A stretch of 64,000 nucleotides of DNA from Ignavibacteria bacterium (GCA_013177855.1 JABLYA010000005.1:7426-71425), one strand, 5' to 3'. Shown: positions 13,270-64,000, counted from the first letter of the stretch. Notes: generated by a model not told the origin, from the sequence alone. Translations and numbers: made by a program.

Positions 13270-14703
13270 ATGAAAAATTATAACAATTTCATAATAGAAA
13301 AAATCATTCGTAAAGAAAACATAGATGTAATTTATAATAAATATTATAAAAACATTGATTATGATATATTTAAGAAATTATTTCATCAGATCCAACATCT
13401 TGGATAGATGGAAATCTTTATTTCGGTAAATATTGTAAGTGGCTTTTAAACCTTTATAAATCAAATAAATTAAAATTAGAAGACCTTTATAAAGTAAAAG
13501 ATTACATAGAACTATTTAATAAACAATCTTTAGAAATAAATTACCCGTTAATAAAAGAGATATAAATTTATATGATTCACTAGGTGAATTAGCAAAAACT
13601 ATAGAACCTTTTAAAGAAAGTGAAGAAATTCTTTCTAAATCAGAAATAAAAGATAAAAATTTTGTAAAGGAGTTTAAAAAATTTAATTTATACATCCCTA
13701 GAACATATGAAGATTCATGCATTCTTGGTAAAGGAACTGAATGGTGTACAGCCACAGAAAAAACCTCTAAATGGTATAAAAAATATCATAAACCTGGAAG
13801 AGAATTACTTATATTCATTTCTAAAACAGATTCAAAAGAAAAATACCAACTTCATTTAAGATCAAAACAATTCATGGATAAATTCGATGAAAAGGTTGAT
13901 TTAAAAACATTTTTAAATGAAAATGAAGATATAAAATATTGGTTGTTAAATAATTATAATAAAGAATATGGAAAATATTTTAATGAAAATTCTATTAAAT
14001 GGAGAAAAAATACACTGATAGGTTCACCAAAAATAGTTGAAGGTGATTTTATTTGTTCTTATAATCAATTAATTTTATTAGAAGGTGCACCAGAAAAGGT
14101 TGAAGGTAATTTTAATTGTTCTTTTAATCAATTAACTTCATTGGAAGGTGCACCAAAAATAGTTGAAAGTAATTTTTATTGTGATAATAATAAATTAACT
14201 TCATTGGAAGGTGCCCCAGAAAAGGTTGAAGGTTATTTTAATTGTTCTTATAATCAATTAACTTCATTGGAAGGTGCTCCAGAAATGGTTGAAGGTAGTT
14301 TTAATTGTTCTTATAATCAATTAACTTCATTGGAAGGTGCTCCAAAAATAGTTGAAGGTGTTTTTTATTGTCTTATAATAAATTAACTTCATTAGAAGGT
14401 GCCCCAGAAAAGGTTGAAGGTGATTTTATTTGTTCTTATAATCAATTAACTTCATTGGAAGGTGCTCCAGAAAAGGTTGAAGGTGATTTTTATTGTTCTT
14501 ATAATAAATTAACTTCATTAGAAGGTGCACCAGAAATGGTTGAAGGTGATTTTTATTGTTCTTATAATCAATTAACTTCATTGGAAGGTGCTCCAGAAAA
14601 GGTTGAAGGTGATTTTTATTGTGATAATAATAATTTAACCGAAAAAGATATAGGATGGTTAAAACAAAATTGTAAAATAAAGGGAAAAATTATATGGAAA
14701 TAA
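13270..14703 (+). pseudogene. CTS-like leader, then a GTEWCTA (PcfJ-like) domain, then 10 x 22-aa LRR-like repeats. The frame is broken about 3 times.
   Basis: MKNYNNFIIEKI...; ILGKGTEWCTATEKTSKWY; NQLTSLEGAPEKVEGDFYCSY repeats. Frameshifts lie near 13383, in 13500-13545 and at 14365 (one t missing relative to sister repeats). Confidence 0.6.
14021..14640 (+). repeat. Coding tandem repeat, 66 bp x about 10
   Basis: Repeated ttaacttcattggaaggtgc(t/a)ccagaaa(a/t)ggttgaaggt... units are read directly in the sequence. Confidence 0.85.
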
Positions 14704-14727
14704 TATGAAAAATTATATGGAAATAGT

Positions 14728-14830
14728 GTGAAAAATTATAACAATTTCATAATAGAAAAAATCATTCGAAAAGAAAACATAGATGTAATTTATAATAAAT
14801 ATTTGATTATGATATATTTAAGAATTTCAT
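14728..14830 (+). pseudogene. 5' remnant of a third copy of the LRR-family gene (GTG in place of ATG)
   Basis: VKNYNNFIIEKIIRKENIDVIYNKY repeats 13270..13345. It is preceded by a 22-bp local duplication at 14704..14740. Confidence 0.5.
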
Positions 14831-15322
14831 CAGCTTGAGAATGTTCCTGATGAATTTGATTCGTTGGTAAAAGAAAAGGTTACTTATTTGAAAAAAAAAG
14901 CATTCGCTGAAACTAAGGCTGAAATTGAAAAAAGTTATACTGCTGTTATTGTAGATTTGCCTGTGACTAAAAAGTTGTTCGCTATGAAGATGTCTATAAA
15001 TAAAGATTAAATGTAGGAATAACAGAATCTGTTGAACATAAACAAAGTATCTAAGGATTGGTTAATATCATTGTTTACAAATTCATTACACTTTTCTTTA
15101 TCACAAAAGTAATAGATTGCATTATTTACTTAGTAATAAAAATTTAGAATAACGATAGAGGATAAATTTTAAGATGAAGAATATTTATGAATATGAATAT
15201 TTAATAGACTTATTATATCATATAGATACACAGGTGTTACCACCAAGAGAAGAAATATTTTTGACTTGATAAAAAATTAATTTATTCGTAAAGAAAATAT
15301 AGATTACACAAATTTGAAAGGT

Positions 15323-16066
15323 TTAAAATCCTATATTAATATGTTGTTCTTTTAATTCGTGCCTGTATTCGTATTTAATAATCTCTTTTAATAACCAAGC
15401 ATCATTAATATCTTCCAAGGGTTTTGGAAATGTTTTTAAAGATAAAATTTCTTCTACATTTTCATTATAGAATTTATCTAATATACATTTATTATGTGAT
15501 TTTAAAATCATTTTAAACATATCTTTCTTGTCAAAATCACCACCTTTCTTACCGTCTTCACTTGTATTAATTATTTTGACAATTTTTTCTTTCTTTTTAC
15601 CAATATTAATCATTTCATAACCATAAATCATTTCACATGCAATAAGTTTTAATGATTTTGGTGCAATAATCTTAATCTTTTTAATATTTGGAATATTTTC
15701 AAAAATCTTTGATCTTACAATAGAGCCAATACCAACCAAATCTATAATTTGTGATGAATCCTTTCCATATGAATAGCCTTCAATATAAATAATTGTTGGT
15801 TTAGTAGATACAATTGTATTAATTATATCTTCTATTAAATCATTTGAGATTTTTGAAAAATTTTTAAGCTTATCTATTTCAGAATCAGAATAATTATCTT
15901 TTGAATTATCATATTCATATGTTTTGATTTTGACAATATTTTCAATACATTTATTCCATTTGTAAGTAGGTTTATTTGTATTGTAAGAAAATATGTATTC
16001 TTTTTCATCAGTTTCAATTACCATAGAAGTTGAAACCTTTGATATATCTATTCCTATAAAATTCAT
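15323..16066 (-). CDS. RuvC-fold Holliday junction resolvase-like nuclease
   Basis: N-terminal FIGIDISK, IIYIEGYSYG and C-terminal EDINDAWLL match the D/E/D(D) arrangement of RuvC-like resolvases. Confidence 0.6.
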   Translation of the reverse strand: MNFIGIDISKVSTSMVIETDEKEYIFSYNTNKPTYKWNKCIENIVKIKTYEYDNSKDNYSDSEIDKLKNFSKISNDLIEDIINTIVSTKPTIIYIEGYSYGKDSSQIIDLVGIGSIVRSKIFENIPNIKKIKIIAPKSLKLIACEMIYGYEMINIGKKKEKIVKIINTSEDGKKGGDFDKKDMFKMILKSHNKCILDKFYNENVEEILSLKTFPKPLEDINDAWLLKEIIKYEYRHELKEQHINIGF

Positions 16067-23806: not shown

Positions 23807-24610
23807 ATGAAAATATTAAAAGATTATAAACAGTATGTTAAAGAAAATGTAAATGACATGGCAAAATATAATAAAATGATAGATTATACTTTGTTAGATA
23901 ATGATGCAACAAAAGAAGATATTATACGACTTTGTGAAAAAGCAAGAATTATGAATGTTAAATCTGTATGTGTTATGCCTAAACATGTTATTATTGCTGC
24001 AGAAGAATTATCTGATTGTGATATTTTGGTTTGTACAGTCATTTCATTCCCAGAAGGAACAAACACATTAAAACAAAAAATAGCTGAAACAAATCAAGTT
24101 ATCCAAGATGGTGCTGATGAAATTGATGTGGTATTAGATTACCAATATTTAAAGAAAGAATGGAATGATACCGCATCAAACGGTGGTGATTTAGAAATTA
24201 GTAAATCTCAAAAATTAATTAAAGAAATTTCAGAATTGGTAAGAATATGTCATGCAAATGAAAATAAAGATGGTGATGAAATAACATTAAAAGTTATTGT
24301 TGAAAGTGGTTTGTTAACACCAAAACAAACAGAAGTTGCTACCATTATTTGTTTAGAAAGTGGTGCTGATTTTATTAAAACTTCAACAAGTAAAGTTGCA
24401 GTTGGTGATGAATTAGAAAAAGTTAAAGTGATGAAAGATACTATAGATAAATATATAGGTGAATATGATTATTACTATGAAGGTTTTAAAATGAAAATAA
24501 ATGTATCTGGTAATATCAGAACTATACAAGATATTAAAAAATTTAAACCTTATGTAGATAGATTTAGTATGGATTATGTTGATGTTGATAAACTTAATGG
24601 TTTAGAATAA
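23807..24610 (+). CDS. deoC: Deoxyribose-phosphate aldolase (DeoC-like)
   Basis: IDYTLL..., SVCV, TVISFPEG, GADEIDVV and GADFIKTSTSKVAVG match E. coli DeoC FIKTSTGKVAV. ATG 23807 is preferred over TTG 23783. Confidence 0.7.
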   Translation: MKILKDYKQYVKENVNDMAKYNKMIDYTLLDNDATKEDIIRLCEKARIMNVKSVCVMPKHVIIAAEELSDCDILVCTVISFPEGTNTLKQKIAETNQVIQDGADEIDVVLDYQYLKKEWNDTASNGGDLEISKSQKLIKEISELVRICHANENKDGDEITLKVIVESGLLTPKQTEVATIICLESGADFIKTSTSKVAVGDELEKVKVMKDTIDKYIGEYDYYYEGFKMKINVSGNIRTIQDIKKFKPYVDRFSMDYVDVDKLNGLE

Positions 24611-24683: not shown

Positions 24684-27131
24684 ATGAAATACTTAAAATC
24701 ATATGAAAGCAAATTAATAGATGATATACTGGATAAAATTTCAAAAACTGGTATGAAATCATTAACACCTTCAGAAAGAAATTATTTAAATAATGTTTTT
24801 AAAGGAGATACCAAAGAATTGGAAGATATTGTAAAATATAAGAAAAATAAAATTTCTAGTATTTTTGAATATGACCCAAGAGAAGACCAAGACTTTTTTG
24901 ATGAACTCGGAGATGAAATTGGTATACCGTTTGATTTTAGAGACTATGATGATGAAGAGATTGAGCAAGGAAGATATGAAATTATATATAATGATATTGA
25001 TGAAGAAGATTTAGATCATTTTGTAGAATATTTTGACATTAAAGATTGTAAAAAAGAATACAAAGGTAAAGATGTATATAAACCTTGGCATGAATTAAGT
25101 CAAGAAACTCAAAATAAATTTAAAAAAATATATAAAAGAAATATATTAATGTTATATAGTTATAATTCATATTTAAAAATTCTTGAAAGTAAACAATCTG
25201 AAAAGAAAATTGAAAAGGTTATTGCAAAAATTAAAAAATTTGTCAATATACCTGAAATTTATAATTGGGCAATAGACAAATGTACTAACAACAGAAAAAC
25301 TACCGAAGGATTAAAATATGCAATATGGGTTGCTAATCAGATCAAAAATTATGTTGTAGATGATTTGATAAAAACCGTAAAAGTTAGAAATAAGGTAAAC
25401 GTGAATAAACAAGAAGTAGAATTATATTTAAAGGGTGAAAATAAGGAATTATCTAAAAAAATAAATGAATTAGATAATATATTAAAACAAATTATTGATA
25501 ATTTTCCTAAATTTTTAAATGAAAAAATTAATTATATTTTAGACTGGTTAAAATCACCAATAAGAACAGAAAAAATAAATTTATCAGAATTAAATTTAGA
25601 AAGTGCATATAAGAAATCAGAAGAATGGCATAATTCATTGACAGCGACAGGTAAAATAACCGATGAAACGGGCAAAGTTTTTATTGAATTTGATGATGGT
25701 TATTATTGGATAGATTTACAAACAACATATTCTGAAGATGAAGCTAAAGCAATGGGTCATTGTGGTAAAACTAATGAAGGAGATACCTTATTTTCATTAA
25801 GAGATAAAAACAAATCACCACATATTACAGTCGCATACGATACAAAAAATGGTGTTATCTATCAAATGAAAGGTAAAAATAATCGAAAACCTATTGATAA
25901 ATATCACCCATATATTTATAGACTATTGGTAGATCCTATATTAAAGCCAAAATATTTTGGATATGAATGGAATAAAGAAGAAGATTTTAATTTAAGTGAT
26001 TTTGATAAAGAAACATTTAATAAAGTATATAAATATAATCCCAATTTAATTTATAATTCAATAAATTATGATCATAAAATGTGTAAAGGTTTAATACAGA
26101 AAAATTATTTGGATAAAGAAGATATTAAAGATGTGTTAATTAATAGTAAAGATGTTAATATAAATATAATTATGGATATGTTAGATACTGATCTTTTTAC
26201 TAAAGATGAATTGAAAGAAATGTTAAAGATATCAAAATTTTCACCAAAAGATTGGAGTGATTTAACTAATATAAAATTATATAATGAAGGGTTAATATCA
26301 ATTGAACAATTAGCCAAAAAATTTAATGAGATTGAAATTATTGATGGTGTTGGTTATATTGATGGTGATGAAGATGATTTGAGCCATTTTATGGATGATA
26401 GTGTTAAATCGATATTATTTGATGATGTCCAACCGATATTATTTGATGATGTCCTTTTGAATGGGGTTATTATTGATATGGATAGTTCCGAACATGTCTG
26501 GGATTATTTAACAAAAGAAAATAAAGAAAAAGTTATCCAAAAAATATTAGAATATGGTAAATCATTGCAATACAAAAATTATAGAATAGATAAACAATTC
26601 TGGTTTTTTAATTTAAAACCAACAAAAGAAATGTTTCAATGGATTGAAGAAAAGAAAGATTATTTTTTTGTATATAATAATTACCATTATGAGATTAGTA
26701 TATTGATAGACAATAATAAAGACAATGATTTATACGAACTATATAAAGATATGAATAGATCATTGATTTCGGCACAAAGAACAGCTGATAAAAATGAGTA
26801 TTATAAAAAAGCAATAAAAGAAGTAATTTATTTGTTGGGTGAGTTCAAGAGAGAAAGTATAAAAAGTGAGATAAATGGTAAGACATATTATAAAGAAGTA
26901 TTTAGATTTAAAGCTGATGATTTGTGTGATTGGTCAAGAATGGTTGATTTTCTGGAATATGATTATAGTTATCAAGGTGAAATTGATTGGGAAGAAGAAA
27001 AATATGGTGATTTGTGGTCAATACTTAGAGAAATGATAGATGATAAAGCAGAAATAAATGATGATTATGGTATTTATGGTATAATAAGTTCAAAAGTATT
27101 GAATGATTATTTTTCAGAATATATAAAATGA
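24684..27131 (+). CDS. 815-aa protein with CTS-like leader and PcfJ-like core
   Basis: MKYLKSYESKLIDD...; EDEAKAMGHCGKTNEGDTLFSLRDKNKSPHITVAYDTKNGVIYQMKGKNN. There is an internal 24-bp duplication at 26409..26456. Confidence 0.5.
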   Translation: MKYLKSYESKLIDDILDKISKTGMKSLTPSERNYLNNVFKGDTKELEDIVKYKKNKISSIFEYDPREDQDFFDELGDEIGIPFDFRDYDDEEIEQGRYEIIYNDIDEEDLDHFVEYFDIKDCKKEYKGKDVYKPWHELSQETQNKFKKIYKRNILMLYSYNSYLKILESKQSEKKIEKVIAKIKKFVNIPEIYNWAIDKCTNNRKTTEGLKYAIWVANQIKNYVVDDLIKTVKVRNKVNVNKQEVELYLKGENKELSKKINELDNILKQIIDNFPKFLNEKINYILDWLKSPIRTEKINLSELNLESAYKKSEEWHNSLTATGKITDETGKVFIEFDDGYYWIDLQTTYSEDEAKAMGHCGKTNEGDTLFSLRDKNKSPHITVAYDTKNGVIYQMKGKNNRKPIDKYHPYIYRLLVDPILKPKYFGYEWNKEEDFNLSDFDKETFNKVYKYNPNLIYNSINYDHKMCKGLIQKNYLDKEDIKDVLINSKDVNINIIMDMLDTDLFTKDELKEMLKISKFSPKDWSDLTNIKLYNEGLISIEQLAKKFNEIEIIDGVGYIDGDEDDLSHFMDDSVKSILFDDVQPILFDDVLLNGVIIDMDSSEHVWDYLTKENKEKVIQKILEYGKSLQYKNYRIDKQFWFFNLKPTKEMFQWIEEKKDYFFVYNNYHYEISILIDNNKDNDLYELYKDMNRSLISAQRTADKNEYYKKAIKEVIYLLGEFKRESIKSEINGKTYYKEVFRFKADDLCDWSRMVDFLEYDYSYQGEIDWEEEKYGDLWSILREMIDDKAEINDDYGIYGIISSKVLNDYFSEYIK

Positions 27132-27928: not shown

Positions 27929-27966
27929 ATATATTATATATTAAATAAGTACATAACTTTTCATAC

Positions 27967-41307: not shown

Positions 41308-41328
41308 TCAAAAATGGTATATCCTATC

Positions 41329-45629: not shown

Positions 45630-47081
45630 ATGCTTGTAGACTTTGAATATAAGAATCATAATTTAATATGTTCATACATTGATAAATCTGGTCAAATAAA
45701 ACTTAAATATTATCCTTGGACTCCAACAAAATTTATACCTACATCACAAGATGATCCCGATAGGTCTGGAAAATATGTTACTTGGGATGGACGTCCAGTA
45801 AAAGAAATTTACACAAAACATCCTAATAAATATTCCATATATGATTTTCTTGACACATTACCAGAAGAAGAACAAAGTATGTTATTTGATTATCACGAAC
45901 CAAATATATACTTTATAGATATTGAAAATGAAATTCTTGATAAGAAACCTCAACCTCATTTGGCTGAAAGTAAAATTCTTTCAATTTCAATTATTTGCAA
46001 AAATAAAGCACTTGTCATTGGAATAGACCCATTATCACAAAAAGATCAAAAATCAATCCAAAACGATATTAATAATGAATACGGACGTATTTTTGATAGA
46101 GAATGGGAGTTTAAATATGTTCAGTATAAAAATGAATATGAATTATTGTTAAATTTCTTTAAAGTATTTGTACCTAAGATGCCTGTTATGACAGGTTGGA
46201 ATTTCAAACACTATGACTGGGTATTTTTAGTAAATAGAGCAAGAAAATTAGGTATTGATCCATCAATGTCTTCATATACTGGTCTTCTTTATGAAGAAAA
46301 TCAAAATGATCCAAAAAACTACTGTGAATTGCCAGCACATAGAATTATTATTGACTATATGGAAATATTTTCTAAGTGGGACACATCTATTAAAGTAAAA
46401 GAATCATTAGGATTGGATTTTGTTTCAGACAAAGTTCTTAAAGTAAAGAAAGTTAATTATGAAGGTAACCTTAAAATATTATATGAACAAGATTTCAAAA
46501 AGTTCGTGTATTATAATGCAGTTGACTCAATTCTTGTTCAATTAATACACGAAAAATCAAAACTTGCTGATATTCTTTATGGTATTGCAACATTAAGTAG
46601 AACAACTGTAACAAAAGCATTATCAACTCTTTCTATCACTGAAGGTATTTTGAGAAAGAAATTAAGAGAACAAAAGAATATAGTTTTGGTTAAGAATGAA
46701 GAAAGTGTAGGTGGTTCTGCTGTAATTGGTGGTTGGGTAAAAGAGCCAATCAGAGGTATGGCAACTTGGACTGCTTGTTTTGACTTTGCTTCACTATATC
46801 CAACAACAATGCGACAATTTAATATATCTGCGGACTCATATAAGGGTCAGAAAATAAATGAAAATTATGCTTTATTTAACGGTCAACAAATAGAATTAGA
46901 TCCAACTGACATTATTACAAAAAATGGTGCTGTATTTAAGAATGAAATTGGAGTAGTAACACAAGTTATGGGTGAAATTTATGCTGATAGAAAAAAATAT
47001 AAAAATATGATGATTCAAAAAGCACATGAATTAGATGAATTGAAAAGAGAATTAAAAGAATTAGAAGATAGTCTAATGTAA
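45630..47081 (+). CDS. gp43: Family-B DNA polymerase, N-terminal part only (exonuclease domain through motif A)
   Basis: ExoI is YFIDIENE, ExoII is TGWNFKHYDW, ExoIII is YYNAVDSILV and motif A is CFDFASLYPT. The ORF stops about 85 aa after motif A, without motif B (KxxxNSxYG) or motif C (YGDTDS). Confidence 0.8.
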   Translation: MLVDFEYKNHNLICSYIDKSGQIKLKYYPWTPTKFIPTSQDDPDRSGKYVTWDGRPVKEIYTKHPNKYSIYDFLDTLPEEEQSMLFDYHEPNIYFIDIENEILDKKPQPHLAESKILSISIICKNKALVIGIDPLSQKDQKSIQNDINNEYGRIFDREWEFKYVQYKNEYELLLNFFKVFVPKMPVMTGWNFKHYDWVFLVNRARKLGIDPSMSSYTGLLYEENQNDPKNYCELPAHRIIIDYMEIFSKWDTSIKVKESLGLDFVSDKVLKVKKVNYEGNLKILYEQDFKKFVYYNAVDSILVQLIHEKSKLADILYGIATLSRTTVTKALSTLSITEGILRKKLREQKNIVLVKNEESVGGSAVIGGWVKEPIRGMATWTACFDFASLYPTTMRQFNISADSYKGQKINENYALFNGQQIELDPTDIITKNGAVFKNEIGVVTQVMGEIYADRKKYKNMMIQKAHELDELKRELKELEDSLM

Positions 47082-49617: not shown

Positions 49618-51345
49618 TTAGATAAGAACACCATTGTTGTCTGTAACACGGATTTCCATAAATTGTTTCCAAGGGAAGAAACCAATGTCTGTGATAGCGT
49701 AACGGCTTCTGATAAGCATTCTTGGTGCCCAAGTTGCTTCGGAAATCAATGAAATTGATTGTGCCATTAAGTAAGGAATGAATACAAGACCTGGTTGATC
49801 AACTGAATTCTTTCTTCCTAAGAAGATTCTGTTATCATCCCATCTCATGTAAGGATCTACATAGATTGTGATGTTACCAATGTTACCCATTGGGTACAAC
49901 TGACCATTTGTATTCAATTTACCAACGTTAGTTGGAGCGATTGTGTATCCAGCAACATCTTGTAATACGGAAGCTAAGTTACCGTTTGTGATAAGATATT
50001 GAGCAGGACCTACTCTACCGTCAGTAGCAATAAAGTTAGAAGCGTTGTTGATTTTAGCAACAAGTTTTCTTTGGATTGAGTGGTAAGTTTCACCACCAGG
50101 TGCAGGACCAGCAACTGCTGTGTAATCATCAACGTTAAAGTCGAATTTAGAATTACCTGAAGCGTCTTTTGGAGTTGTGTGAGATGCTCTGTTTTCGCCT
50201 GCAAGAGTTCTAATCTTATCAACAATTTGTTTAGAAATTGTTTGAGTAAGTTCGTTAATAAGAACTGATTCAAGTTTTTGTACAATGTCCATACCAGTTG
50301 AAGCTTTAATATCTTCAATTTGTGTACGTTTTAATGCACTTGAAATTTCGATGTCACCTACTGCAACAGATTTGGTGAATACGTCTGGACCAATAACACC
50401 AGGATAAGTGTTTTCATCTTCAAGACGGCTCATAGCATGGTTAATGTACCAACCAGCTGAGAAACCAGGAAGGTGATCTTCCATTGTGCTTACTAACTCA
50501 ATAGTTGCACCAGTAATTTGAAGTAATGAACTACCACTTAAATGATAGAAATAAGCACCTTCTAATTGAGATACAACTGATGTAGCGTAACCGAATGTGT
50601 TTTTATTTTGGTCAAATCCCCAATTACCTGCAGCAGCGTTGTTGTTTTGTCTGTATGATCTAAACATAGGAAGACCATCAACTCTTGAAAAACCTAAAAA
50701 TTCTAAAACACCAAGTTTATTACCTGTTGGAGGAGTTGTTGTAGGTTCAAATACGTTAGTGAATGAACCACCAGTTAAAGTAACAAATACTCTTTTATCT
50801 AATCCACCAATAAGTTCTTTAGTTGTTAAAACACCAAGTGTATATGTTAATTGGTTTAAAAGAGTTGTTTTATCAGTAACATTTAACTTGAAAACAAGTG
50901 GTTGTTCATCACCATCTAAATTACCATGACCTTGTGGATTGTTATCGTATTTAAAATCTACGAATAACAATTCTAATCTTGGTGAAGAAGCTGGTTTTAC
51001 TGCAACAAGGTCAAGACCAATTGTTTGAGCAGCAATTTTCATTGATACTGGAAGTAAGTTTTGAGCTACATCACCTGAACCGATAGCACCTGTAGTTACA
51101 GGAGCACCTGTACCTGTGTAAGTGTTTGTGCCACCATAAAGACCAGCACCACCGATAACGGGAGCTTGAACATTACCCATACCATAAATGTTACCTAATG
51201 TGCTATAAGCAACATTTTCATTAAGCTGATGCATTTCAGCATATTCAGCCATCCAAGTTCTTTTTTCAATATCACTTACTTGTAAGTGGTCAAGAACAGG
51301 AGCCCATTTTTTCAAAGCTTTTGCTTTATCTACGATAAAATTCAT
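49618..51345 (-). CDS. gp23: Major capsid protein, T4 gp23-like
   Basis: The N-terminal propeptide-like region is followed by LLPVSMKIAAQTIGLDLVAVKPASSP, comparable with T4 MVRRAIPNLIAFDICGVQPMNSP. Gene order is portal-protease-scaffold-MCP. The start is set at MNFIVDK because the 11-mer lies inside the longer ORF extension. Confidence 0.85.
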   Translation of the reverse strand: MNFIVDKAKALKKWAPVLDHLQVSDIEKRTWMAEYAEMHQLNENVAYSTLGNIYGMGNVQAPVIGGAGLYGGTNTYTGTGAPVTTGAIGSGDVAQNLLPVSMKIAAQTIGLDLVAVKPASSPRLELLFVDFKYDNNPQGHGNLDGDEQPLVFKLNVTDKTTLLNQLTYTLGVLTTKELIGGLDKRVFVTLTGGSFTNVFEPTTTPPTGNKLGVLEFLGFSRVDGLPMFRSYRQNNNAAAGNWGFDQNKNTFGYATSVVSQLEGAYFYHLSGSSLLQITGATIELVSTMEDHLPGFSAGWYINHAMSRLEDENTYPGVIGPDVFTKSVAVGDIEISSALKRTQIEDIKASTGMDIVQKLESVLINELTQTISKQIVDKIRTLAGENRASHTTPKDASGNSKFDFNVDDYTAVAGPAPGGETYHSIQRKLVAKINNASNFIATDGRVGPAQYLITNGNLASVLQDVAGYTIAPTNVGKLNTNGQLYPMGNIGNITIYVDPYMRWDDNRIFLGRKNSVDQPGLVFIPYLMAQSISLISEATWAPRMLIRSRYAITDIGFFPWKQFMEIRVTDNNGVLI

Positions 51346-51367
51346 AATTTTAATTGTTTTTTTTTTA

Positions 51368-51378
51368 TTATATATTAA
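51368..51378 (-). promoter_or_regulatory. TTAATATATAA (minus strand) 22 nt upstream of MCP ATG 51345
   Basis: Exact 11-mer. Confidence 0.55.
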
Positions 51379-51451
51379 CTCAAAAATGTCATTTTTTTCC
51401 ATTTTTATTGGTAATTAGGGTTTTACACATAACTACCTATTATATAATGAG

Positions 51452-52648
51452 TTAATATCCTAAATTTTTAATTTTTGAGATGAATGCATCTATTTGTTCA
51501 TCTGATAGAGAAGTATTATCTACAACTCTGTTTTCGTTAAGAATCTGTTTACTTTCATTAATCTTAGTATAAGATTCTAGTCTTCTGCTCTCCCAGAATT
51601 TTTCCATTCTTGATGGAGTAGTTAAATCAGGGTAAAGTTTTGCAGAATTGATTATACTCTTTTTGTAATTTTCGTTCAACTTTTCCCATATAGGTTTTAA
51701 TTCTGAAGGCATATTTTCAATCAATACATCTTCAAATGTTTTTTGAACTGAAAGAGCATTTTTAATAGCATAAAGTACTTGATTTTCTGTGTAGATAGGT
51801 TCTTTACTTTCGTTTATTGTAAAGATAACTTTTTCTTTATCTTCACTTGTAAGTCCGTACCATGCTTTTTTGTTCTTTTCTGTTAGGAATTGAACAAAAT
51901 GTGGTTCTTGATTTTCAGAAGCTTTACGTTTTTTAGTTTCTGTAATTAAGTTACCAATGTATGATTTTAATGAATTTTCGGTTTCCATAATTCTATCACC
52001 AATAAGGTTAACTTTACTTTCATGTACTTCTACTAATTCATTATTGTCAGCCATTTTAACTACTAATATACCTGTTGAAGGATTTGAAGCAAGAATTTCA
52101 CCTGTTCTATCTTCAATAGATACTGTTGCACCAGGAACTAATTGTACTTGTGCACCAACTGGTTCGCCTTCAATTGAATCAGGCATTTCACTATCAATTT
52201 CATTTGGTTGTGATTGAACTTGATTTTTTGGTTGTGATTGAACTTGATTTTTTGGTTGTGATTGAATTTGATTTTTTGGTTGTGATTGAACTTGATCTTT
52301 TGGTTGTGATTGAACTTGATCTTTTGGTTGTGATTGAACCTGAACTTTTAGTTGTGCTTGAGTTTGTACAGGTTCATCATCAGTTTCATCTGGTTCTTGT
52401 ATTTGTGATTTTTGAATGAAATCATCGTCTTCATCATAATACTTGTCTATATCAGAAACTTGTCTCATGTTAGGAATTTGCATTTGATTTCCAGCTTCAA
52501 AAATTTTTGAACTTTTAATAGATTCAATTGTGTTGTCAAGACCTTCAGCAATATAATTCATATATGCCTGTGTATCTGAAACATTTTCAGCAATGTATTC
52601 TGAATAAGCAATGTTGTTATCAACATGCTCAGCAATGTATTCTGGCAT
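51452..52648 (-). CDS. gp22: Prohead scaffold protein (gp22-like by position and composition)
   Basis: Acidic, repeat-rich and lying between the protease and MCP. Starts at MPEYIAEHVDNN (ATG 52648) or at the upstream ATG 52696. Contains (V/I)QSQPK(D/N)Q x6. Confidence 0.55.
   Translation of the reverse strand: MPEYIAEHVDNNIAYSEYIAENVSDTQAYMNYIAEGLDNTIESIKSSKIFEAGNQMQIPNMRQVSDIDKYYDEDDDFIQKSQIQEPDETDDEPVQTQAQLKVQVQSQPKDQVQSQPKDQVQSQPKNQIQSQPKNQVQSQPKNQVQSQPNEIDSEMPDSIEGEPVGAQVQLVPGATVSIEDRTGEILASNPSTGILVVKMADNNELVEVHESKVNLIGDRIMETENSLKSYIGNLITETKKRKASENQEPHFVQFLTEKNKKAWYGLTSEDKEKVIFTINESKEPIYTENQVLYAIKNALSVQKTFEDVLIENMPSELKPIWEKLNENYKKSIINSAKLYPDLTTPSRMEKFWESRRLESYTKINESKQILNENRVVDNTSLSDEQIDAFISKIKNLGY
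52206..52349 (-). repeat. 24-bp coding tandem repeat x6
   Basis: ggttgtgattgaacttgatttttt units are read directly. Confidence 0.9.
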
Positions 52649-53070
52649 AAGCAATGTTGTTATCAACATGCTCAGCAATATATTCTGCATAAGCAATGTT
52701 GTTGTCTAAGTTCTCAGCAAGATATTCAGAATAAGCAATATTCTTATCGAGATTTTCAGCAAGATATTCAGAGTATGCTATATTGTTATCAAGATTTTCT
52801 GCAATATATTCACTATATGCAATATTTTTATCAAGATTTTCTGCAAGATATTCTGAATAATCAATAGATTTTTCAATATTTTCTGCTAAATAATCAGAAA
52901 ATTGAATATTTTTATTAACATGTTCTGCTATATATTCTGAAAAATCAATATTTTTATCTAATATTTCTGCAATATATTCAGAATAGTTAATGTTTTTATC
53001 AAGTTGTTCAGCAAGGTATTCTGAATACTTAATAGCTTTTTCCAAATTCTCAGCTAAATAATCATTATGC
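52530..53070 (-). repeat. 42-bp (14-aa) coding tandem repeat x about 13 that spans the protease/scaffold gene junction
   Basis: NIAYSEYLAENLDK-type units. One unit (52639-52648) has GG where all others have a single G. Confidence 0.85.
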
Positions 53071-53954
53071 TTAGTGAGTTTTTCGGTAATTTCTTTTATT
53101 GACTTGTTTTCATTTACAACAATTTGAATACTATCAGCCAAATAATCAAGATATTTAGCAACTTTGTTTTGTTGCTCTAATAAGGTTTCATAAGACTCAG
53201 ATAATTTTATAATTTGATCAGGTTCAACTTTTCCATTTTTTACACTTTCTGTAAGAAGATATTTTACTTTTTCTAATTCTTCTTTTAAATACTCTGAGTA
53301 TTCAACCATTTGTGCTTTTGTAACAAAATCATTTTGGTTCATGTTGAATAATTCATTAATTTTTGACTCATCAGATATGTCGTATATCCTAAAGTTAGTT
53401 TCTTTTGTTTTAAATCCTAAAGATTCGTTTAATGTCTTTACCTCCATTCTAGCTGAACCGAAACCTGGATCAGCAACAGCATCATAGGTAAATAATTTTT
53501 TAACAGTAACGGTTCCATCTGATTCAGTAATACCAGCAGCTCTACTTGAAACAAAAATAGGGCAACCATCTTCGACTAATGCTTTAGCCTCCTTGCCCCA
53601 ATGTGTGTTTAACAATCTAATTTCACCATCTACTCTATTCTTTTCTTTATTATAAAAAAGTTTTTCAATAGTATGTGAAATTCTTTGTAAACTTGTATCA
53701 AATACGTCTGGATGATCAAACTCACCATATACAGCACCTAATGTATTCTTACGTTCTATCAATTCATTAAGATGTGGTAAGAATTTTTCTGCAGTATAGA
53801 TTCTTTCATTACGATTCATAACATCAAATTCGGTGAAAATACCTGATAGTCGATATTCTTTATTACCTTTACTATCAATCTTTACACCTTCATTAAGTTT
53901 TAAACCATTTGTGTTATTCTCTACAATTAGAACATACTTGTTTGGTTTTACCAT
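52629..53954 (-). CDS. gp21: Prohead core protease (T4 gp21-like) with a C-terminal 14-aa repeat extension
   Basis: The N-terminal 175 aa (SGIFTEFDVMNRNERIY...GEFDHP...SHTIEKL...VSSRAAG...YDAVADPGF) fit the gp21/U9 protease family pattern. It lies directly downstream of the portal gene. Confidence 0.75.
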   Translation of the reverse strand: MVKPNKYVLIVENNTNGLKLNEGVKIDSKGNKEYRLSGIFTEFDVMNRNERIYTAEKFLPHLNELIERKNTLGAVYGEFDHPDVFDTSLQRISHTIEKLFYNKEKNRVDGEIRLLNTHWGKEAKALVEDGCPIFVSSRAAGITESDGTVTVKKLFTYDAVADPGFGSARMEVKTLNESLGFKTKETNFRIYDISDESKINELFNMNQNDFVTKAQMVEYSEYLKEELEKVKYLLTESVKNGKVEPDQIIKLSESYETLLEQQNKVAKYLDYLADSIQIVVNENKSIKEITEKLTKHNDYLAENLEKAIKYSEYLAEQLDKNINYSEYIAEILDKNIDFSEYIAEHVNKNIQFSDYLAENIEKSIDYSEYLAENLDKNIAYSEYIAENLDNNIAYSEYLAENLDKNIAYSEYLAENLDNNIAYAEYIAEHVDNNIAYARIHC

Positions 53955-53975
53955 AGTTTATTTATTATTTTTTTA

Positions 53976-53986
53976 TTATATATTAA
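53976..53986 (-). promoter_or_regulatory. TTAATATATAA (minus strand) 21 nt upstream of ATG 53954
   Basis: Exact 11-mer. Confidence 0.55.
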
Positions 53987-54065: not shown

Positions 54066-55739
54066 TTAGAATGAAAATTGTGATTGTCCACCACTTTCTT
54101 GTCCACCACCTTGTGGAGGTGATTGTCCGCCTTGTGCACCCATTTGGGTACTACCTTGCATTCCACCTTGCATTCCACTAACACCTTCACTAGCATTAGC
54201 ACTACTATCAACAAGTTTATATTTCTTGTTTTCGGTAATATCAGCGTCAGTAAATTTCATAATTTTGCGAATAATCCATTCAACATGTAGATATGGTTTA
54301 CCCTCAGCATCTTGTAAATTTGAACTTAATGTAGAAGCAATTTCGGCTCTTTTTTGTAAGTTGTTTAAAAATTTCCATTCTTCAAATAATTCGTTTTTAT
54401 TAAATATAACTTGTATTGAAGCGTGAAATAGATTATCATCTTTCAATTCAGGAAAATCCATAATCATCTGAATCTTCAAAGGTTTAACGATTATTTCTTT
54501 GAAAATAGTTCTTAATCTCTTAATATAATTTTGGAATTTAATTTCATGTCTTGTCATTTCAGCAGTATCATTAAATAAATTTCCACCACCAGCATCGTCA
54601 TCAAATCTACTGAAAGGAAGTTTTGAAGCTCTTTTTAAGTTTTTGAAAAACCAAGTAAGCATTGAATCTTCATTCAAATCTGTGCCTTGTGCTGTGACTA
54701 TTTCTACTGTTGGAGTACCTAAATCAGAACTTGGGAACCAAAAATCTTTTGAGTGAGGAATATTGGTTGAACCATTTATTGATACAGTACCCATTGTATC
54801 ATCCCATTGTACATCTTCGTGATACTCTGACATCAATTCATATATTTGTTGTTCTGCTTGTTGTTTTGTTAAACCATTTGTAGGAATAATAAATTTTTTA
54901 TAAATTGCTGCTTGATTAATATTGTAAAGTAATCTTGTTTGTTCCAACATTTTTAATTGATTATAAGGTCTAATCAAATTTTCAACGTAAGATGTTTCTG
55001 CAAATTCATTATTATTAGTATACGATATATATATAATCTGAGCATCTAATAAAACTCTTCTAATTTGTGGATTATCAGGATATTGTATCCAAACTATTGT
55101 ACCAGAACCAGGATCAGTTGCAACAATAAGCGTCATGGGATCTATTGGTTGAAGGTCTATAATATTTTTTTGTTTGTTATCATAAACTATTTCATAAGCA
55201 ATATAACCATCAATTAAAAAATTTTTAAAATAATTCCAAGCTGTTATACCATCACTAAAACCAAAATTTCTATAAATTTTATTGAAATTTTCTTGCCATC
55301 TTTGTTTTATAGAATTATCAAACTCATCTGGTAAATCTTTTAATTTGCAAAAATAATTATCATCATTGTATATAATTGTTTCATCAGCAATTTGAGTAAT
55401 AAAATCTTTTATTTCATCTTTAATTGCATATTGTCTTAATATTTTTCTTTTATCAACATAGGCTCTATCAAGGTATGCTATAGATTTTCTATCAAGCATT
55501 TTTGATATAATTTTCTTAGAAAATATATCATACATATTGGTTGATAATGTTGTTTGTCCTTTTGGATCTTCATGTAAACCAATAGAGTACGTATTTTTAA
55601 TAATCATATTTTCATAATCCATACCCCAATTGGATAAATTTCTAAGCATTCTGTTGAACATACCACGATTTTCAATAGTATTGCCTAAGTTGTTCATTGT
55701 GTTTTGGTTATTGTTAGTATACCTATTATATGATGGCAT
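54066..55739 (-). CDS. gp20: Portal protein, T4 gp20-like
   Basis: 557 aa. ...HSKDFWFPSSDLGTPTVEIVTAQGTDLNEDSMLTWFFKNLKRASKLPFSRF resembles the gp20 core. It has a G/Q-rich C-terminal tail. The variant motif TTTATATATAC lies 21 nt upstream. Confidence 0.75.
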   Translation of the reverse strand: MPSYNRYTNNNQNTMNNLGNTIENRGMFNRMLRNLSNWGMDYENMIIKNTYSIGLHEDPKGQTTLSTNMYDIFSKKIISKMLDRKSIAYLDRAYVDKRKILRQYAIKDEIKDFITQIADETIIYNDDNYFCKLKDLPDEFDNSIKQRWQENFNKIYRNFGFSDGITAWNYFKNFLIDGYIAYEIVYDNKQKNIIDLQPIDPMTLIVATDPGSGTIVWIQYPDNPQIRRVLLDAQIIYISYTNNNEFAETSYVENLIRPYNQLKMLEQTRLLYNINQAAIYKKFIIPTNGLTKQQAEQQIYELMSEYHEDVQWDDTMGTVSINGSTNIPHSKDFWFPSSDLGTPTVEIVTAQGTDLNEDSMLTWFFKNLKRASKLPFSRFDDDAGGGNLFNDTAEMTRHEIKFQNYIKRLRTIFKEIIVKPLKIQMIMDFPELKDDNLFHASIQVIFNKNELFEEWKFLNNLQKRAEIASTLSSNLQDAEGKPYLHVEWIIRKIMKFTDADITENKKYKLVDSSANASEGVSGMQGGMQGSTQMGAQGGQSPPQGGGQESGGQSQFSF

Positions 55740-56512: not shown

Positions 56513-56513
56513 A

Positions 56514-60203: not shown

Positions 60204-60232
60204 AAAATTTTTATACCAGAATATTATTTTTA

Positions 60233-60243
60233 TTATATATTAA
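60233..60243 (-). promoter_or_regulatory. TTAATATATAA (minus strand) 29 nt upstream of ATG 60203
   Basis: Exact 11-mer. Confidence 0.5.
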
Positions 60244-60277: not shown

Positions 60278-60292
60278 ATATTTACTAACCAA

Positions 60293-60909: not shown

Positions 60910-60920
60910 TTAATATATAA
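60910..60920 (+). promoter_or_regulatory. TTAATATATAA (plus strand) 20 nt upstream of ATG 60941
   Basis: Exact 11-mer. Confidence 0.5.
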
Positions 60921-60940
60921 TAAAAATGTATTAAGTAAAA

Positions 60941-61255
60941 ATGATTACAAAATTTAATAATTTCTCTGGTGTTGTGAGTGTTAAAATAGATGATAATATC
61001 TTATACTTTCATTTAAAATATGATGAAAATATTAAACCTTTTAAGGTTGAATTATGGCTTCATGATGGTAAATATGATGATTTAAGTATTAACATAACAG
61101 ATTCTAAAAATTTGGGTCATAAAGAATTTTATTTAAATCCATTTATCAATTTAGAAATTGTTGAAACACTTAAAAATGAAGGTTTTATAGAAGAAACAGG
61201 AAAAGAAAGTGTAGCTGGTGATAAAAAAACAAAATCTTATCTTTTATTAATATGA
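60941..61255 (+). CDS. Hypothetical protein
   Basis: The ORF overlaps the next gene by 4 nt (ATGA). Confidence 0.5.
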   Translation: MITKFNNFSGVVSVKIDDNILYFHLKYDENIKPFKVELWLHDGKYDDLSINITDSKNLGHKEFYLNPFINLEIVETLKNEGFIEETGKESVAGDKKTKSYLLLI

Positions 61256-63252
61256 AACGAGTAAAAAACTTTAAACTATTTGAAAATTTTGAATATGAAA
61301 AATATCATGATGGTATTTATAAAAATAAACTATACGAATCACCAAATACAGTAACAATTAATGGAAGATATATTACTAGTATGTGTGAAAGTCCTTTAGA
61401 AATGATTTTTTTATATTCTAAGGATAAAAATCCAAAATTTTATTATGAAATTGGTTGTGAATGTCATGATAACCTTGCCAATAAAAACGGTGTTCGTTAC
61501 AACAGAGATAAACAGATCAGTGGTAGAGTTTTTATAAAAAATAAAATAATAACATTCTGGGTTTATCCATCAACATATGAGCAATTATTAAAAATTATTG
61601 ATGATATTAATGGTGGTTTAGAAAAAATAGGATTTAAGGTTGATGAAACTTGGAAGGTGGAAATTCCAATAAATAGAAATAAAATTTCAAATGATATAAC
61701 ATATATAAATGAATACGAACTTGTACCTATACATGAATATAAAGGTGGTGCTAAAACAAGTGAAGAAGAAATGAAAATACCACATTTAATTAATTGGAAA
61801 GAAAAACAAGAGCTTAAAAAGAAAGGTTGGGGAAAAGGTTTCGGTTCCGATATGACTGCCTGGAATTCTAAGAACCCATTATATTGGAGACAAGCTAAAT
61901 ATCAGGAGAATATTAAAAATTTTGATACTTTTATATTAAATGAAGGCAGAAAAGAAGATATATTACAAAAATTTCAAGATGAATATGGTAAGGGTTTAGG
62001 TTTATCACTATGGGAATCAGATCCAACAGAAAATAAAGCCTATATTGAATGGTTATTATCATTTATCAAAAGAAATGAAAAAGAATTAGGTATAGATAAA
62101 TTGAGATTATATAAAGGTGATAAAAATGATATTGGTAAGTTTATAAAAGAAAGAAATAAAGTTCAATCACTTTTAACTTCAATAATAAAGAAATATGATA
62201 ATAATAAAAAAGATTTTTCAAAACCAATTAATCAAATAAAAACTATTGAAGATTTAAAAAAAATATTGGATGAAAAAGATAAATTTGAAAAAGTTGCCAA
62301 TATAAATGATGAAAAATTTTGTAAAGTTTGGTTTAATAATTTAGAATGGATTGTTTTTCAACCGTTTAAATATGAAATTGCACAATTTGCTTATAAAAAA
62401 GATAGAAAAAGAAATTGGTGCACTACATATCAAAAAAGTCAATTTGATAATCATAATGGTGAAAAAGGAGGAATAATTTATTGTATTAATAAATTAGATT
62501 CAACAAAAGATGTGGCATTTGAATTATTTCCAAATGAAATAGTTAAAAAATGGGATTATGAAGATAATGATACTAAAATAGACATTTTTCAAATGAAGAA
62601 CGAATTTGAAGAAGGTTCTGAAATATATGAAATTTTTGATAATGAAATAGAACATGAAATTGAATTACCTACATTTTCTAGAAATGAATTAGAAGAAAAA
62701 GCAAGAGAATATTTTAGTGATATGGGTATAGAAGAGTTAGGTCTTAATGCTGATTCAATTTTCGATTATCTTGATATTAACAATTTTACTGAAAGTTGGA
62801 TTGAAGGTGAAGCCAAATATTTTGCAGATTCATTAATTGATATGATGAAAAGCTATGCTGATTGGGATTCTATATACAAATATATTACTAGAAGATATTC
62901 CATGGACACTTTGTTAGATTTCTTCGGTTGTGATAATGAAGATGAATTTAAAGAAAAATTCTATAAGGGTGAGGGTCAATATTATGATCATGATGATATT
63001 GAACGTCTAGTTGTAAAATATAATGATGAGTATAATTTTGCAAAATATTTTATGAATAAAATATACAAAGGTTATTCATCAAGAGATATATATGAAGAAT
63101 TTTTTGGTAATGCTGATAAAGCCAATATAAAAAAAATTTTAAATTTTGCTCGCAATCATTTTGATGAAGATAATTGGATAGACTATAAAATACAAAGTAT
63201 AATTAACGATATGACTGATGAAGATATATTAGAAATGGTTTTTGATATTTAA
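61252..63252 (+). CDS. 666-aa protein with CTS-like leader, the conserved GFGSDMTAW module and a WCT (PcfJ-like) segment
   Basis: MKRVKNFKLFENFEYE...; IPHLINWKEKQELKKKGWGKGFGSDMTAWNSKNPLYWRQAKYQE (paralog of nt 2..480); RKRNWCTTYQKSQFDNHNGEKGGIIYCINKLD. Confidence 0.55.
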   Translation: MKRVKNFKLFENFEYEKYHDGIYKNKLYESPNTVTINGRYITSMCESPLEMIFLYSKDKNPKFYYEIGCECHDNLANKNGVRYNRDKQISGRVFIKNKIITFWVYPSTYEQLLKIIDDINGGLEKIGFKVDETWKVEIPINRNKISNDITYINEYELVPIHEYKGGAKTSEEEMKIPHLINWKEKQELKKKGWGKGFGSDMTAWNSKNPLYWRQAKYQENIKNFDTFILNEGRKEDILQKFQDEYGKGLGLSLWESDPTENKAYIEWLLSFIKRNEKELGIDKLRLYKGDKNDIGKFIKERNKVQSLLTSIIKKYDNNKKDFSKPINQIKTIEDLKKILDEKDKFEKVANINDEKFCKVWFNNLEWIVFQPFKYEIAQFAYKKDRKRNWCTTYQKSQFDNHNGEKGGIIYCINKLDSTKDVAFELFPNEIVKKWDYEDNDTKIDIFQMKNEFEEGSEIYEIFDNEIEHEIELPTFSRNELEEKAREYFSDMGIEELGLNADSIFDYLDINNFTESWIEGEAKYFADSLIDMMKSYADWDSIYKYITRRYSMDTLLDFFGCDNEDEFKEKFYKGEGQYYDHDDIERLVVKYNDEYNFAKYFMNKIYKGYSSRDIYEEFFGNADKANIKKILNFARNHFDEDNWIDYKIQSIINDMTDEDILEMVFDI

Positions 63253-63268
63253 AAAATAATATTAAATT

Positions 63269-63853
63269 ATGAAATACTTACACACATACGAAAAATACTT
63301 ATTAATATTAGAAGTTGGTGAATGTTCTGTAGAACCTTATAAAATAGATAATTATTTAGAAATACCTGGTCCATTTAACACAAAGACTTTCAATTATATA
63401 TTTAATACTGATTCTGGTTTGAGATATTCTATTAATATTATGAGATATCCGAATGAATTTCATTTTAGAAAAAGTGATGTAAAAAATTGTGAAGTTATAG
63501 ACGATACTGTACAAGATTTTTATGATAAAGTGATATTGGTTTCTTATTTTACTTTTTATGGTGAAGATGAAGAAATGTTTTATACTTATGATGATGTTAC
63601 AATTCAGAATAAAGGTGAATTATATAAAATAATGTCTACTTTAAAATGGTGTATTGAAGATTATTTAAATAAAAATAATGAAATTAAATATATATTTATA
63701 GGTGGTCAAAGAGGTAAAAAAGGTAAAGATAAAGAACAAAGAGACAATTTATATCTTTATTATTTTAAAAAGAATAAGCCAAATTGGCAAATTGGTAAAA
63801 TATACTGTGATTCTATGAGAGAATATTATTATATAATAAAAATAAAAGATTAA
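63269..63853 (+). CDS. Hypothetical protein with CTS-like leader
   Basis: MKYLHTYEKYLLILEVGE... Confidence 0.5.
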   Translation: MKYLHTYEKYLLILEVGECSVEPYKIDNYLEIPGPFNTKTFNYIFNTDSGLRYSINIMRYPNEFHFRKSDVKNCEVIDDTVQDFYDKVILVSYFTFYGEDEEMFYTYDDVTIQNKGELYKIMSTLKWCIEDYLNKNNEIKYIFIGGQRGKKGKDKEQRDNLYLYYFKKNKPNWQIGKIYCDSMREYYYIIKIKD

Positions 63854-63856
63854 AAT

Positions 63857-64000
63857 ATGTTACATAATTATAAATCATTCATAATACTTAATGAGAGTAA
63901 AAGTAGAGATAAAAAACTTGAAAAACAAAGAGAAAAAATTTATAAGTTTTTGAAATTTGATCCTATCATTGATTATGTATTTGATAAAGTTGTAGATAAA
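63857..64000 (+). CDS. Hypothetical protein, 3' end outside the window, with CTS-like leader
   Basis: MLHNYKSFIILNESKSRDKK... is open to the window end. Confidence 0.45.
   Translation, partial: MLHNYKSFIILNESKSRDKKLEKQREKIYKFLKFDPIIDYVFDKVVDK

Follow-up and report, generated by a model that had tools for sequence, protein, structure and literature searches.

A short N-terminal leader on many proteins of a Mahaphage-type huge phage resembles both the T4 capsid targeting sequence and a repeat in the phage's protease-scaffold fusion

Introduction

Why do some ten predicted proteins, which have little else in common, start with much the same short peptide in a single 64,000-nt stretch of phage DNA (GCA_013177855.1, JABLYA010000005.1:7426-71425; the whole stretch is hereafter called the window)? 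The initial annotation of the window quoted twelve such N-termini, all of which we found in the sequence, and proposed that they direct their carriers into the phage head, as the capsid targeting sequence (CTS) does in phage T4. The T4 CTS, MKTYQEFIAE, which is carried by the internal proteins IPI, IPII and IPIII and removed by the protease gp21, is the closest known system. Experiments in T4 have shown that targeting depends on residues 4 and 7 of the CTS, and processing on residues 8 and 10. The leader MKNYNNFIIE of the window was said to match the CTS at 6 of 10 positions; this count is correct, and the matches include positions 4, 7, 8 and 10, all of which are kept in MKNYNNFI[IK]E.

The window, with a G+C content of about 25% and no tRNA genes, belongs to a Mahaphage-type huge phage whose head module is T4-like. 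Among deposited phages, its only nucleotide matches are the uncultured 642-735-kb genomes LR756501-3, which belong to the Mahaphage clade and for which Bacteroidetes are predicted as hosts. Here we report that the leader is real, that it is a transferable N-terminal module on proteins unrelated beyond it, and that its core is repeated about twelve times in the protease-scaffold gene of the same phage. We put at roughly 55% the probability that it is a cleavable propeptide which mimics a scaffold repeat unit, works like the T4 CTS and has its cargo delivered with the DNA.

Results

The core of the initial annotation, a shared N-terminal module like the T4 signal together with a gp21-family protease, was borne out, although one case was wrong, four are moderate and two cargo labels could not be confirmed. 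Seven of the twelve quoted leaders are strong (13270, 14728 as a remnant, 43666, 41329, 23807, 61252 and 63857; open reading frames, or ORFs, are designated by the position of their start) and four are moderate (63269, 24684, 27928 and 32392). The twelfth, 42050, was rejected, its N-terminal segment aligning to an internal region of the paralogues 42882 and L021_18968. One leader, at 60941, had been missed. In the list that follows, scores in bits refer to a position weight matrix (PWM) described below, and a slash in a sequence marks the predicted cut.

13270-14703, plus strand: gene with the leader MKNYNNFIIE, an N-terminal domain common to ORFs 24684 and 63857, then leucine-rich repeats (LRR)
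14728-14838, plus strand: decayed tandem duplicate of the 13270 leader region, a 36-aa ORF with a GTG start
23807-24610, plus strand: DeoC homologue with the leader MKILKDYKQYVKE at residues 1-13, before the enzyme core
24684-27131, plus strand: 815-aa protein, MKYLKSYESKLIDD; leader-like, with Asp-Asp at the end and not Glu; PWM 8.6 bits
27167-27928, minus strand: 253-aa protein, MKLLKFNKYSFLKE; moderate leader match, with promoter-like boxes directly upstream
32392-32820, plus strand: 142-aa protein, MKNYLKFVQKINEE; moderate match with Y4, F7 and V8, the Glu being displaced
41329-41466, plus strand: 45-aa basic ORF with the leader MKYIKSFENFIVE; strict motif and MKxIKxFxxF form; PWM 11.5 bits
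42050-42838, plus strand: 262-aa protein, MKNILSFDKMFE; rejected as a leader
43666-44155, plus strand: leader MKNYNNFIKE on a 20-aa ORF, followed in another frame by an open body of about 140 codons
60941-61255, plus strand: 104-aa protein, MITKFNNF..., a leader variant known from homologues of the 666-aa family
61252-63252, plus strand: 666-aa protein, MKRVKNFKLFE/NFEYE; class aromatic-x-[IL]-F-E; PWM 13.2 bits
63269-63853, plus strand: 194-aa protein, MKYLHTYEKYLLILE; moderate to good match
63857-64000, plus strand: start of the 629-aa protein P0170, MLHNYKSFIILNE, which continues beyond the end of the window

The leaders span residues 1-10 to 1-16. Their consensus takes two forms: M-K-x-[IL]-K-x-[YF]-x-x-[FY]-([ILV]-x)-E, and M-K-N-Y-N-N-F-I-x-E for leaders in the T4 register. 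The T4 residues Y4 and F7 are found unchanged in 13270, 14728, 43666 and 32392, and the aromatic pair is moved to positions 5/8 or 7/10 in the others. The leader class of 63857 is kept in more than 30 homologues (MLHNYKSFTLILES...), and 60941 is the first gene of a leader-gene cluster (60941-64000) and has a promoter-like box ahead of it. The DNA of the 14728 region is near-identical to that of the 13270 region, the upstream 3' end of the LRR part included, and 14728 is probably a pseudogene remnant. ORF 41329 overlaps the next gene, 41454, whose family normally has no leader at its start; it may be a small protein or a frame-shifted fusion.

As for the bodies behind the leaders, PHROGs and Pfam searches of the candidate cargo gave almost nothing besides DeoC, LRR and a DUF6576-like stretch. 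The DeoC and LRR labels of the initial annotation were confirmed, the 13270 gene, which has the strict motif and whose family has N-termini such as MINYKNFIIEKK, giving an LRR_4 match of 34.5 bits. The PcfJ and GNAT labels were not: PcfJ gave a sub-threshold match (17.6 bits against a cut-off of 25) on the 815-aa protein only and no match on the rebuilt 13270 gene, and the body at 43724-44152, behind the 43666 leader, had no Pfam match to support GNAT. The body of the 815-aa protein belongs to the same family as 63857 and 13270. Its DUF6576-like segment DDILDKISKTGMKSLTPSERNYL lies directly behind the leader (24705-24791, residues 8-36, Pfam 29.5 bits), and its DDILDKISK stretch recurs in a second leader protein, L024:20688 of LR756502.

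In order to judge how far such N-termini exceed chance, we separated the informative from the uninformative parts of the leader. The hydrophobic-x-E end, to which the initial annotation had pointed, is indeed present in most cases ((L/I)-x-E in 10-11 of the 12 quoted and in most relatives), but it is uninformative alone, being found in 27-36% of any 15-residue stretch. The informative feature is a pair of aromatic residues at i and i+3 followed by hydrophobic-x-E. We defined a strict motif, [FYW]xx[FYW][ILVM]xE, and a general form in which hydrophobic-x-E follows the aromatic pair within 0-3 residues. The counts at N-termini were as follows.

Window, strict motif: 5 observed (13270, 14728, 43666, 41329 and 23807), 0.2-0.4 expected
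Window, general form: 8 observed, about 0.4 expected
Window and two relatives, regular expression MKxIKxFxxF: 15 of 147 N-termini, with 0.1-0.75% in internal and shuffled controls
LR756502 (340 kb, 424 ORFs), strict motif: 16 observed, 1 expected
LR756502, regular expression MKxIKxFxxF: 51 observed, 1.8 expected
LR756502, aromatic-x-[ILVM]-aromatic-E: 30 observed, 0.7 expected
LR756502, PWM derived by expectation maximisation, at least 8 bits: 117 of 424 (28%) observed, 2-4 expected

Because one and the same genome served for training and for scoring the PWM, 117 is an upper estimate, while the counts of 51, 30 and 16 are conservative. About 50-117 of the 424 ORFs (12-28%) of this 642-kb relative therefore carry a leader, and the N-terminal enrichment in the clade is 10-20-fold. 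The register is well kept, with I or L at residue 4 in 82 of the 117; across 338 N-termini the aromatic residues peak at positions 4 and 7, and elsewhere in proteins the strict core occurs at about 2-4e-4 per position.

A pattern of this kind might be a by-product of AT-rich codons (AAA, AAT, TAT, TTT and GAA), of Bacteroidetes start preferences or of wrong start calls, the first of which the initial annotation had itself foreseen. The 25% G+C of the window, the frequency of Lys at position 2 everywhere, the high base rate of hydrophobic-x-E and the public gene call for DeoC (P0001), which begins at an internal Met, would all suit it. However, matches were 10-50 times fewer in shuffled N-termini and in internal segments taken from the same proteins, and the same pattern, sought in four AT-rich control phages, was absent from all of them: Clostridium phage c-st, with 26% G+C (0/84), crAss001, with a Bacteroides host (0/41), Lak-A1, with a Prevotella host (0/95), and Tenacibaculum phage pT24, with a Bacteroidetes host (0/22). 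Moreover, DeoC orthologues keep the leader upstream of the alternative start, and Trp occurs at the aromatic positions in place of Tyr or Phe. We conclude that the leader is real and not an artefact of composition, regard that explanation as effectively refuted and give it next to no weight.

The leader is also modular. Among the leader proteins of LR756502, 109 of 117 have no detectable paralogue of their body, and the carriers with a recognisable fold are as different as PPK2 and an ankyrin protein in LR756502 and DeoC and an LRR protein in the window. Orthologues of three cargo families, namely DeoC, the 666-aa family and the 815/629-aa family, keep the leader. DeoC orthologues of 50-77% identity almost all start with M-K-x-[IL]-K-x-Y-x-x-F-[ILV]-x-E-[NAS], behind which a linker of variable length and sequence precedes the conserved core MIDYTLL. 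ORF 23807 encodes a deoxyribose-phosphate aldolase (DERA) homologue, with a Pfam DeoC match of 1e-12 and 39 solved DERAs at E <= 1e-7 over the TIM barrel, and alignment with the solved cellular structures begins only at residue 19-23 of the phage protein. In an AlphaFold2 model (predicted TM score 0.87), the core has a predicted local distance difference test score (pLDDT) above 90 and residues 1-14, the leader, a pLDDT below 50; the model thus portrays the leader as an appendage to the enzyme. In the 666-aa family, 11 of 11 homologues have leader-type N-termini, and the homologues of this and the 815/629-aa family begin with MKYLKRFES..., MITKFQNF..., MLHNYKSFTLILES... or MINYKNFIIEKK... The window leader proteins themselves gave no orthologues by tblastn in the 30+ loci compared; they are highly variable, so that database searches were needed to find homologues. 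A crude search of the loci compared for a ribosomal protein S21 with a leader found none.

Conservation by descent could produce such a picture if the carriers made up one multigene family, ancient and hyper-diverged, in which the motif was the conserved first structural element or served as a recombination handle, kept by common ancestry and gene conversion. Consistent with this, small leader genes stand in tandem arrays in the first 50 kb of LR756502 (19-20 of about 45 ORFs per 25 kb), 13270, 24684 and 63857 are paralogous, 26 of 30 nt are identical between the leaders of 43666 and 13270, and the motif recurs at internal domain starts in the 666-aa family. In contrast, such a family does not account for the 109 carriers without a paralogue outside the leader, for a leader on folds of independent origin (the DERA TIM barrel, PPK2, ankyrin and LRR) or for the DeoC leader being an extension absent from the solved cellular enzymes. 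At the leader positions synonymous codons vary freely and Trp can replace Tyr or Phe. Hence it is the peptide that is under selection rather than the DNA, and the conservation is that of a protein sequence, not a result of DNA homology. Strong purifying selection on 10-12 residues beside bodies diverged beyond recognition implies a function, and we consider descent from one multigene family improbable.

Some members of the 666-aa family have more than one domain. The homologues P0125-P0132 consist of a repeated domain family ending in GWGKGWGSDMTAWDSKNPLAWRQAKYQE, and in the multi-domain members each new domain restarts with a leader-like motif, e.g. NKFIKSFKLFESP; such members may represent polyproteins, or tandem genes that have fused. 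A fragment of the same family forms the first ORF of the window (98-670).

The head module lies on the minus strand, includes a head-closure protein as well, and has the following parts.

49618-51402, minus strand: ORF of the major capsid protein, gp23 family (Pfam Gp23)
51452-52696, minus strand: scaffold-like C-terminal part with Q-rich repeats and a helical domain, fused to the protease in 21/21 relatives
52523-53057, minus strand: repeat array of about 12 tandem 14-residue units with Y-[SA]-E-Y-[IL]-A-E, crossing the frame break between protease and scaffold
52629-53954, minus strand: prohead protease (Peptidase_S77, T4 gp21 family) whose C-terminal tail consists of 14-residue repeats
54066-55739, minus strand: portal, T4 gp20 family (Portal_T4)

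The gp21-like protease that the initial annotation had seen in the window matches Peptidase_S77 with 32.5 bits (cut-off 27; residues 34-147 only) and phrog_207 with 8e-33; the direct match to the T4 gp21 structure (5jbl) is weak (E = 0.1). Its motifs GEFDHP and SSRAAG, which may hold the catalytic His and Ser, are kept in the close relatives examined and appear as the variants GELDHP, GEVEHP and SSRGKG in LR756500, Lak-A1 and pT24. The major capsid protein probably starts with the Met at 51345.

Proteases of the gp21 family cut after Glu in T4, phiKZ, 201phi2-1 and SPN3US, remove part of their own C-termini, and cleave propeptides at additional sites into small fragments. The motif [LMIV]-N-E/N at the end of the N-terminal propeptide of the capsid protein and L-I-V-E/N near the N-terminus of the protease are both conserved, and both would fit cutting after Glu. 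The peptides MKNYNNFIIEKII, MKILKDYKQYVKENV and NIAYSEYIAENLDK are predicted substrates of the protease. A 176-aa paralogue of the propeptide region of the capsid protein (DKWSVILDKLNV...WLSEYAEMHQ...LLPIAKRIAAGTIAL) is encoded separately at 40621-41151 on the plus strand and might act as a core protein of the prohead or as a decoy.

Between the protease domain and the scaffold-like C-terminal domain, 21/21 relatives have 10-15 Y-x-E-Y-[ILV]-A-E units with a period of 14 residues. The core [YF]-x-x-[FY]-[ILV]-x-E is common to the scaffold repeat, the strict leaders and the T4 signal (YQEFIAE). When the N-termini were scored with BLOSUM62 against the scaffold consensus YSEYIAE, only DeoC, 38213, the MKNYNNFI leaders and 41329 stood out, and most other quoted cases were no better than background. 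The repeat core is invariant across the clade, and repeat and leader were compared by presence or absence. Both are found together in the clade of the window, in LR756501, in LR756502 and in the distant LR756500, whose protease is 34% identical and whose repeats are degenerate. Both are absent from Lak-A1 and pT24, which have a gp21-like protease-scaffold with an acidic linker instead. Among the phages compared here, leaders were thus seen only where there are repeats.

A promoter-like box, TTAATATATAAT, may provide a further link between leader and head genes.

Six exact copies: 60910-60921, plus strand; 13036-13047, 27933-27944, 51367-51378, 53975-53986 and 60232-60243, all minus strand
Copies with one mismatch: 21186, minus strand; 41297-41308 and 63826-63837, plus strand

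Each of the six exact copies stands 5-30 nt ahead of a gene start and is oriented towards the gene: they precede the capsid, protease, 1851-aa and 342-aa genes and the leader genes 60941 and 27928. The one-mismatch copies precede the 1457-aa gene and the leader genes 41329 and 63857; when one mismatch is allowed, 29 matches are found in the window, where 11.6 would be expected. In LR756502, the core AATATATA is found upstream of 56% of leader genes versus 20% of the others, and also ahead of the capsid, protease and portal genes. It stands mostly 12-17 nt from the ATG of leader genes, which would imply very short or absent 5' leaders on the mRNA. These data hint that leader genes may be co-regulated with head genes.

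Four of the quoted leaders sit on short ORFs, at 13270 (45 aa), 14728 (36 aa), 43666 (20 aa) and 41329 (45 aa). Reading in three frames revealed that 13270-14703 is one gene with about three single-base frame changes, of which 13270-13407 is the first piece. Behind the 43666 leader, the first ~90 of ~140 open codons have no start codon, and a 1-nt indel separates the two. The indels fall in short A-runs at 13380-13400, 13590-13615, 14380-14400 and 43715-43730 (e.g. A6, the frame being restored by A7), and at least 5 genes in 64 kb are hit by 1-nt breaks. Stop-codon reassignment was rejected as the cause, the breaks being single-base frame changes. The protease-scaffold gene is itself split by a 1-nt insertion at 52640-52700 on the minus strand, within the repeat array (TATGCCAGAATAC, versus TATGC[AT]GAATA[CT] in relatives), whereas 21/21 relatives have a single ORF of 700-870 aa; the split is either an assembly error or a real variant yielding separate protease and scaffold proteins. 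Since leader genes and an essential protease-scaffold gene are broken in the same way, the deposited contig probably carries consensus indel errors, and it was reasonable for the initial annotation to join the pieces of the broken leader genes.

The source contig of the window is 97,967 bp long, and its proteins P0127 and P0170 are filed in NCBI under an 'Ignavibacteria bacterium' metagenome-assembled genome (locus tag HPY57_13605); for a contig that is clearly phage, this is either a binning artefact or a host hint. Elsewhere in the window, a 483-aa DNA-polymerase-like ORF at 45630-47081 (plus strand) covers about the first 500 of 856 positions of the polymerase profile phrog_262, and adjoins a 659-aa protein with homing-endonuclease and Mom-like domains at 47512-49491 (minus strand); the polymerase could be encoded by a split gene. 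Lcl_C (Legionella collagen-like protein C-terminal) domains occur in two proteins, at 2557-3630 (plus strand) and 7457-13012 (minus strand), of which one has a signal-peptide-like N-terminus and the other is the 1851-aa protein behind the promoter-like box. Near-identical 80-82-aa paralogues, MKKI[KE]K[FI]ICKIVKKLNKKEYEK..., lie at 1388-1630 and 2226-2474 (plus strand), either side of a lipoprotein-like gene.

Discussion

Our analysis established the leader motif, its enrichment at N-termini, its conservation and modularity, the homology of the protease, the scaffold repeats and the co-occurrence of repeat and leader. Three lines of support are new since the initial annotation: the ~12 motif repeats in the protease-scaffold, the co-occurrence of leaders with these repeats, and the box common to some leader and head genes. 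A mechanism can be proposed as follows. Cargo proteins would be made together with head proteins, and the amphipathic leader would imitate one Y-S-E-Y-I-A-E unit of the protease-scaffold array and so join the scaffold core of the prohead. The gp21-family protease would then cleave hydrophobic-x-E behind its Glu. In the scaffold repeats, cleavage would give ~14-residue peptides able to leave the shell, while cuts in the propeptide of the capsid protein and at the junction of leader and cargo would leave mature cargo in the head, to be delivered with the DNA. We infer scaffold binding, cleavage, presence in the virion and injection from the sequence features described above.

The leader could also be a genuine N-terminal signal with a different use, sending proteins to another phage compartment or to a membrane by way of an amphipathic helix, or acting as a timing or degradation tag for a host or phage AAA+ protease, in which case its likeness to the scaffold repeat would be coincidental or due to common helix-forming chemistry. 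The number of carriers, about 50-117 of 424 in LR756502, suits general sorting or turnover better than it suits capsid cargo; cytoplasmic-type enzymes such as DeoC and PPK2 are among them; and the leaders are amphipathic and Lys-rich. ClpX recognises some N-terminal motifs made of Met followed by basic and hydrophobic residues. A signal of this kind leaves unexplained, however, why an identical four-position core is found in the scaffold repeats and the T4 CTS, why leaders are absent from Lak-A1 and pT24, which have no repeats, and why leader genes have a promoter-like box in common with the head genes. No compartment or dedicated receptor gene for such a signal was identified. We consider a non-capsid signal rather unlikely, though the most serious of the alternatives.

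Several points weigh against capsid targeting by scaffold mimicry, the reading that we favour. First, the likeness to the scaffold unit consists of four positions and the residue after Glu, and the residues upstream of the first aromatic differ; the co-occurrence of leader and repeat may be a single event, because all phages with both may form one clade. Second, many leaders of the commonest class end in x-F-E, some of them with a non-hydrophobic P3 (K-K-F-E, R-Q-F-E), and the 815-aa protein ends in D-D. The recurrence of the motif at internal domain starts in the 666-aa family means that it could be a structural element of that domain. Third, the scale of 12-28% of the ORFs in LR756502 is far beyond precedent, and up to about a quarter of the ORFs in relatives leaves room for another destination or role of the signal; DeoC and PPK2, as metabolic enzymes, are not obvious capsid cargo. 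As to the box, TTAATATATAAT is AT-rich within an AT-rich genome, and in LR756502 the exact 12-mer is as frequent ahead of leader genes as ahead of the others (5% versus 5%). Finally, we found no cultured member of the clade, and no link between capsid targeting sequences and huge phages in the literature searched. On the matter of scale, SPN3US is already described as packing more than 40 MDa of ejection proteins. The wider proposal, that Mahaphage-type megaphages load about 100 mostly orphan proteins, DERA, PPK2 and ankyrin or LRR proteins included, by a scaffold-mimicking leader and inject them with the DNA, is more tentative than the reading of the leader itself, and we would place it on the doubtful side.

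Comparison with known systems places the leader closest to the T4 CTS. In both, a leader of 10-14 N-terminal residues, with aromatics three apart that are in most cases followed by I/L-x-E, is found on otherwise unrelated and fast-evolving proteins, and both phages encode a gp21-family protease together with a gp23-family capsid protein and a gp20-family portal. Unlike T4, where a handful of proteins carry the signal, there are about 10 predicted carriers in the 64-kb window and 50-117 among 424 ORFs in a relative; the form seen most often (MKxIKxYxxF...) is displaced by three residues, with I/L-F-E as a frequent ending; and the cargo includes large enzymes and repeat proteins. The leader motif is also repeated 10-15 times in a protease-scaffold fusion here, and we know of no such array in T4.

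The phiKZ-like giant phages have gp21-related proteases as well (phiKZ gp175 and SPN3US gp245), which cut after Glu at x-X-E. Many of their head-internal or ejected proteins are processed, the protease cleaves its own C-terminus, and extra sites help to clear propeptide fragments. In SPN3US, only eight of about 50 head proteins are processed. In contrast to the leaders, most propeptides of the phiKZ-like phages are long (in some cases over 100 residues), and they have no common short leader, and their motif is S/A/G-X-E or A-X-E rather than aromatic-x-x-aromatic-[ILV]-x-E. Encapsulin cargo-loading peptides also bring unrelated cargo into an HK97-fold shell by a short terminal peptide; they bind the shell protein and not a scaffold, are usually C-terminal, are not removed by a protease and show no sequence similarity to the leader. 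Fused or nested protease-scaffold genes of tailed phages, such as lambda C/Nu3, provide both functions from one gene, and the protease destroys the scaffold. The linker here differs in being a regular 14-residue array, whose units each include a putative cleavage site and correspond to the leaders found on other proteins.

The functions of most huge-phage genes are not known, and a tag for packaged proteins would sort a large share of them into one class from metagenomes alone. Members of this class would be present at the first moment of infection, e.g. as anti-defence or host-takeover factors. If this is true, the phages would have an effector arsenal on the scale of a proteome, and the leader would identify the injected set directly from genomes. 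Mimicry of a scaffold repeat also suggests a simple mechanism for capsid targeting, which is still unresolved in T4, and the leader points to a portable tag by which foreign proteins may be packaged into very large capsids.

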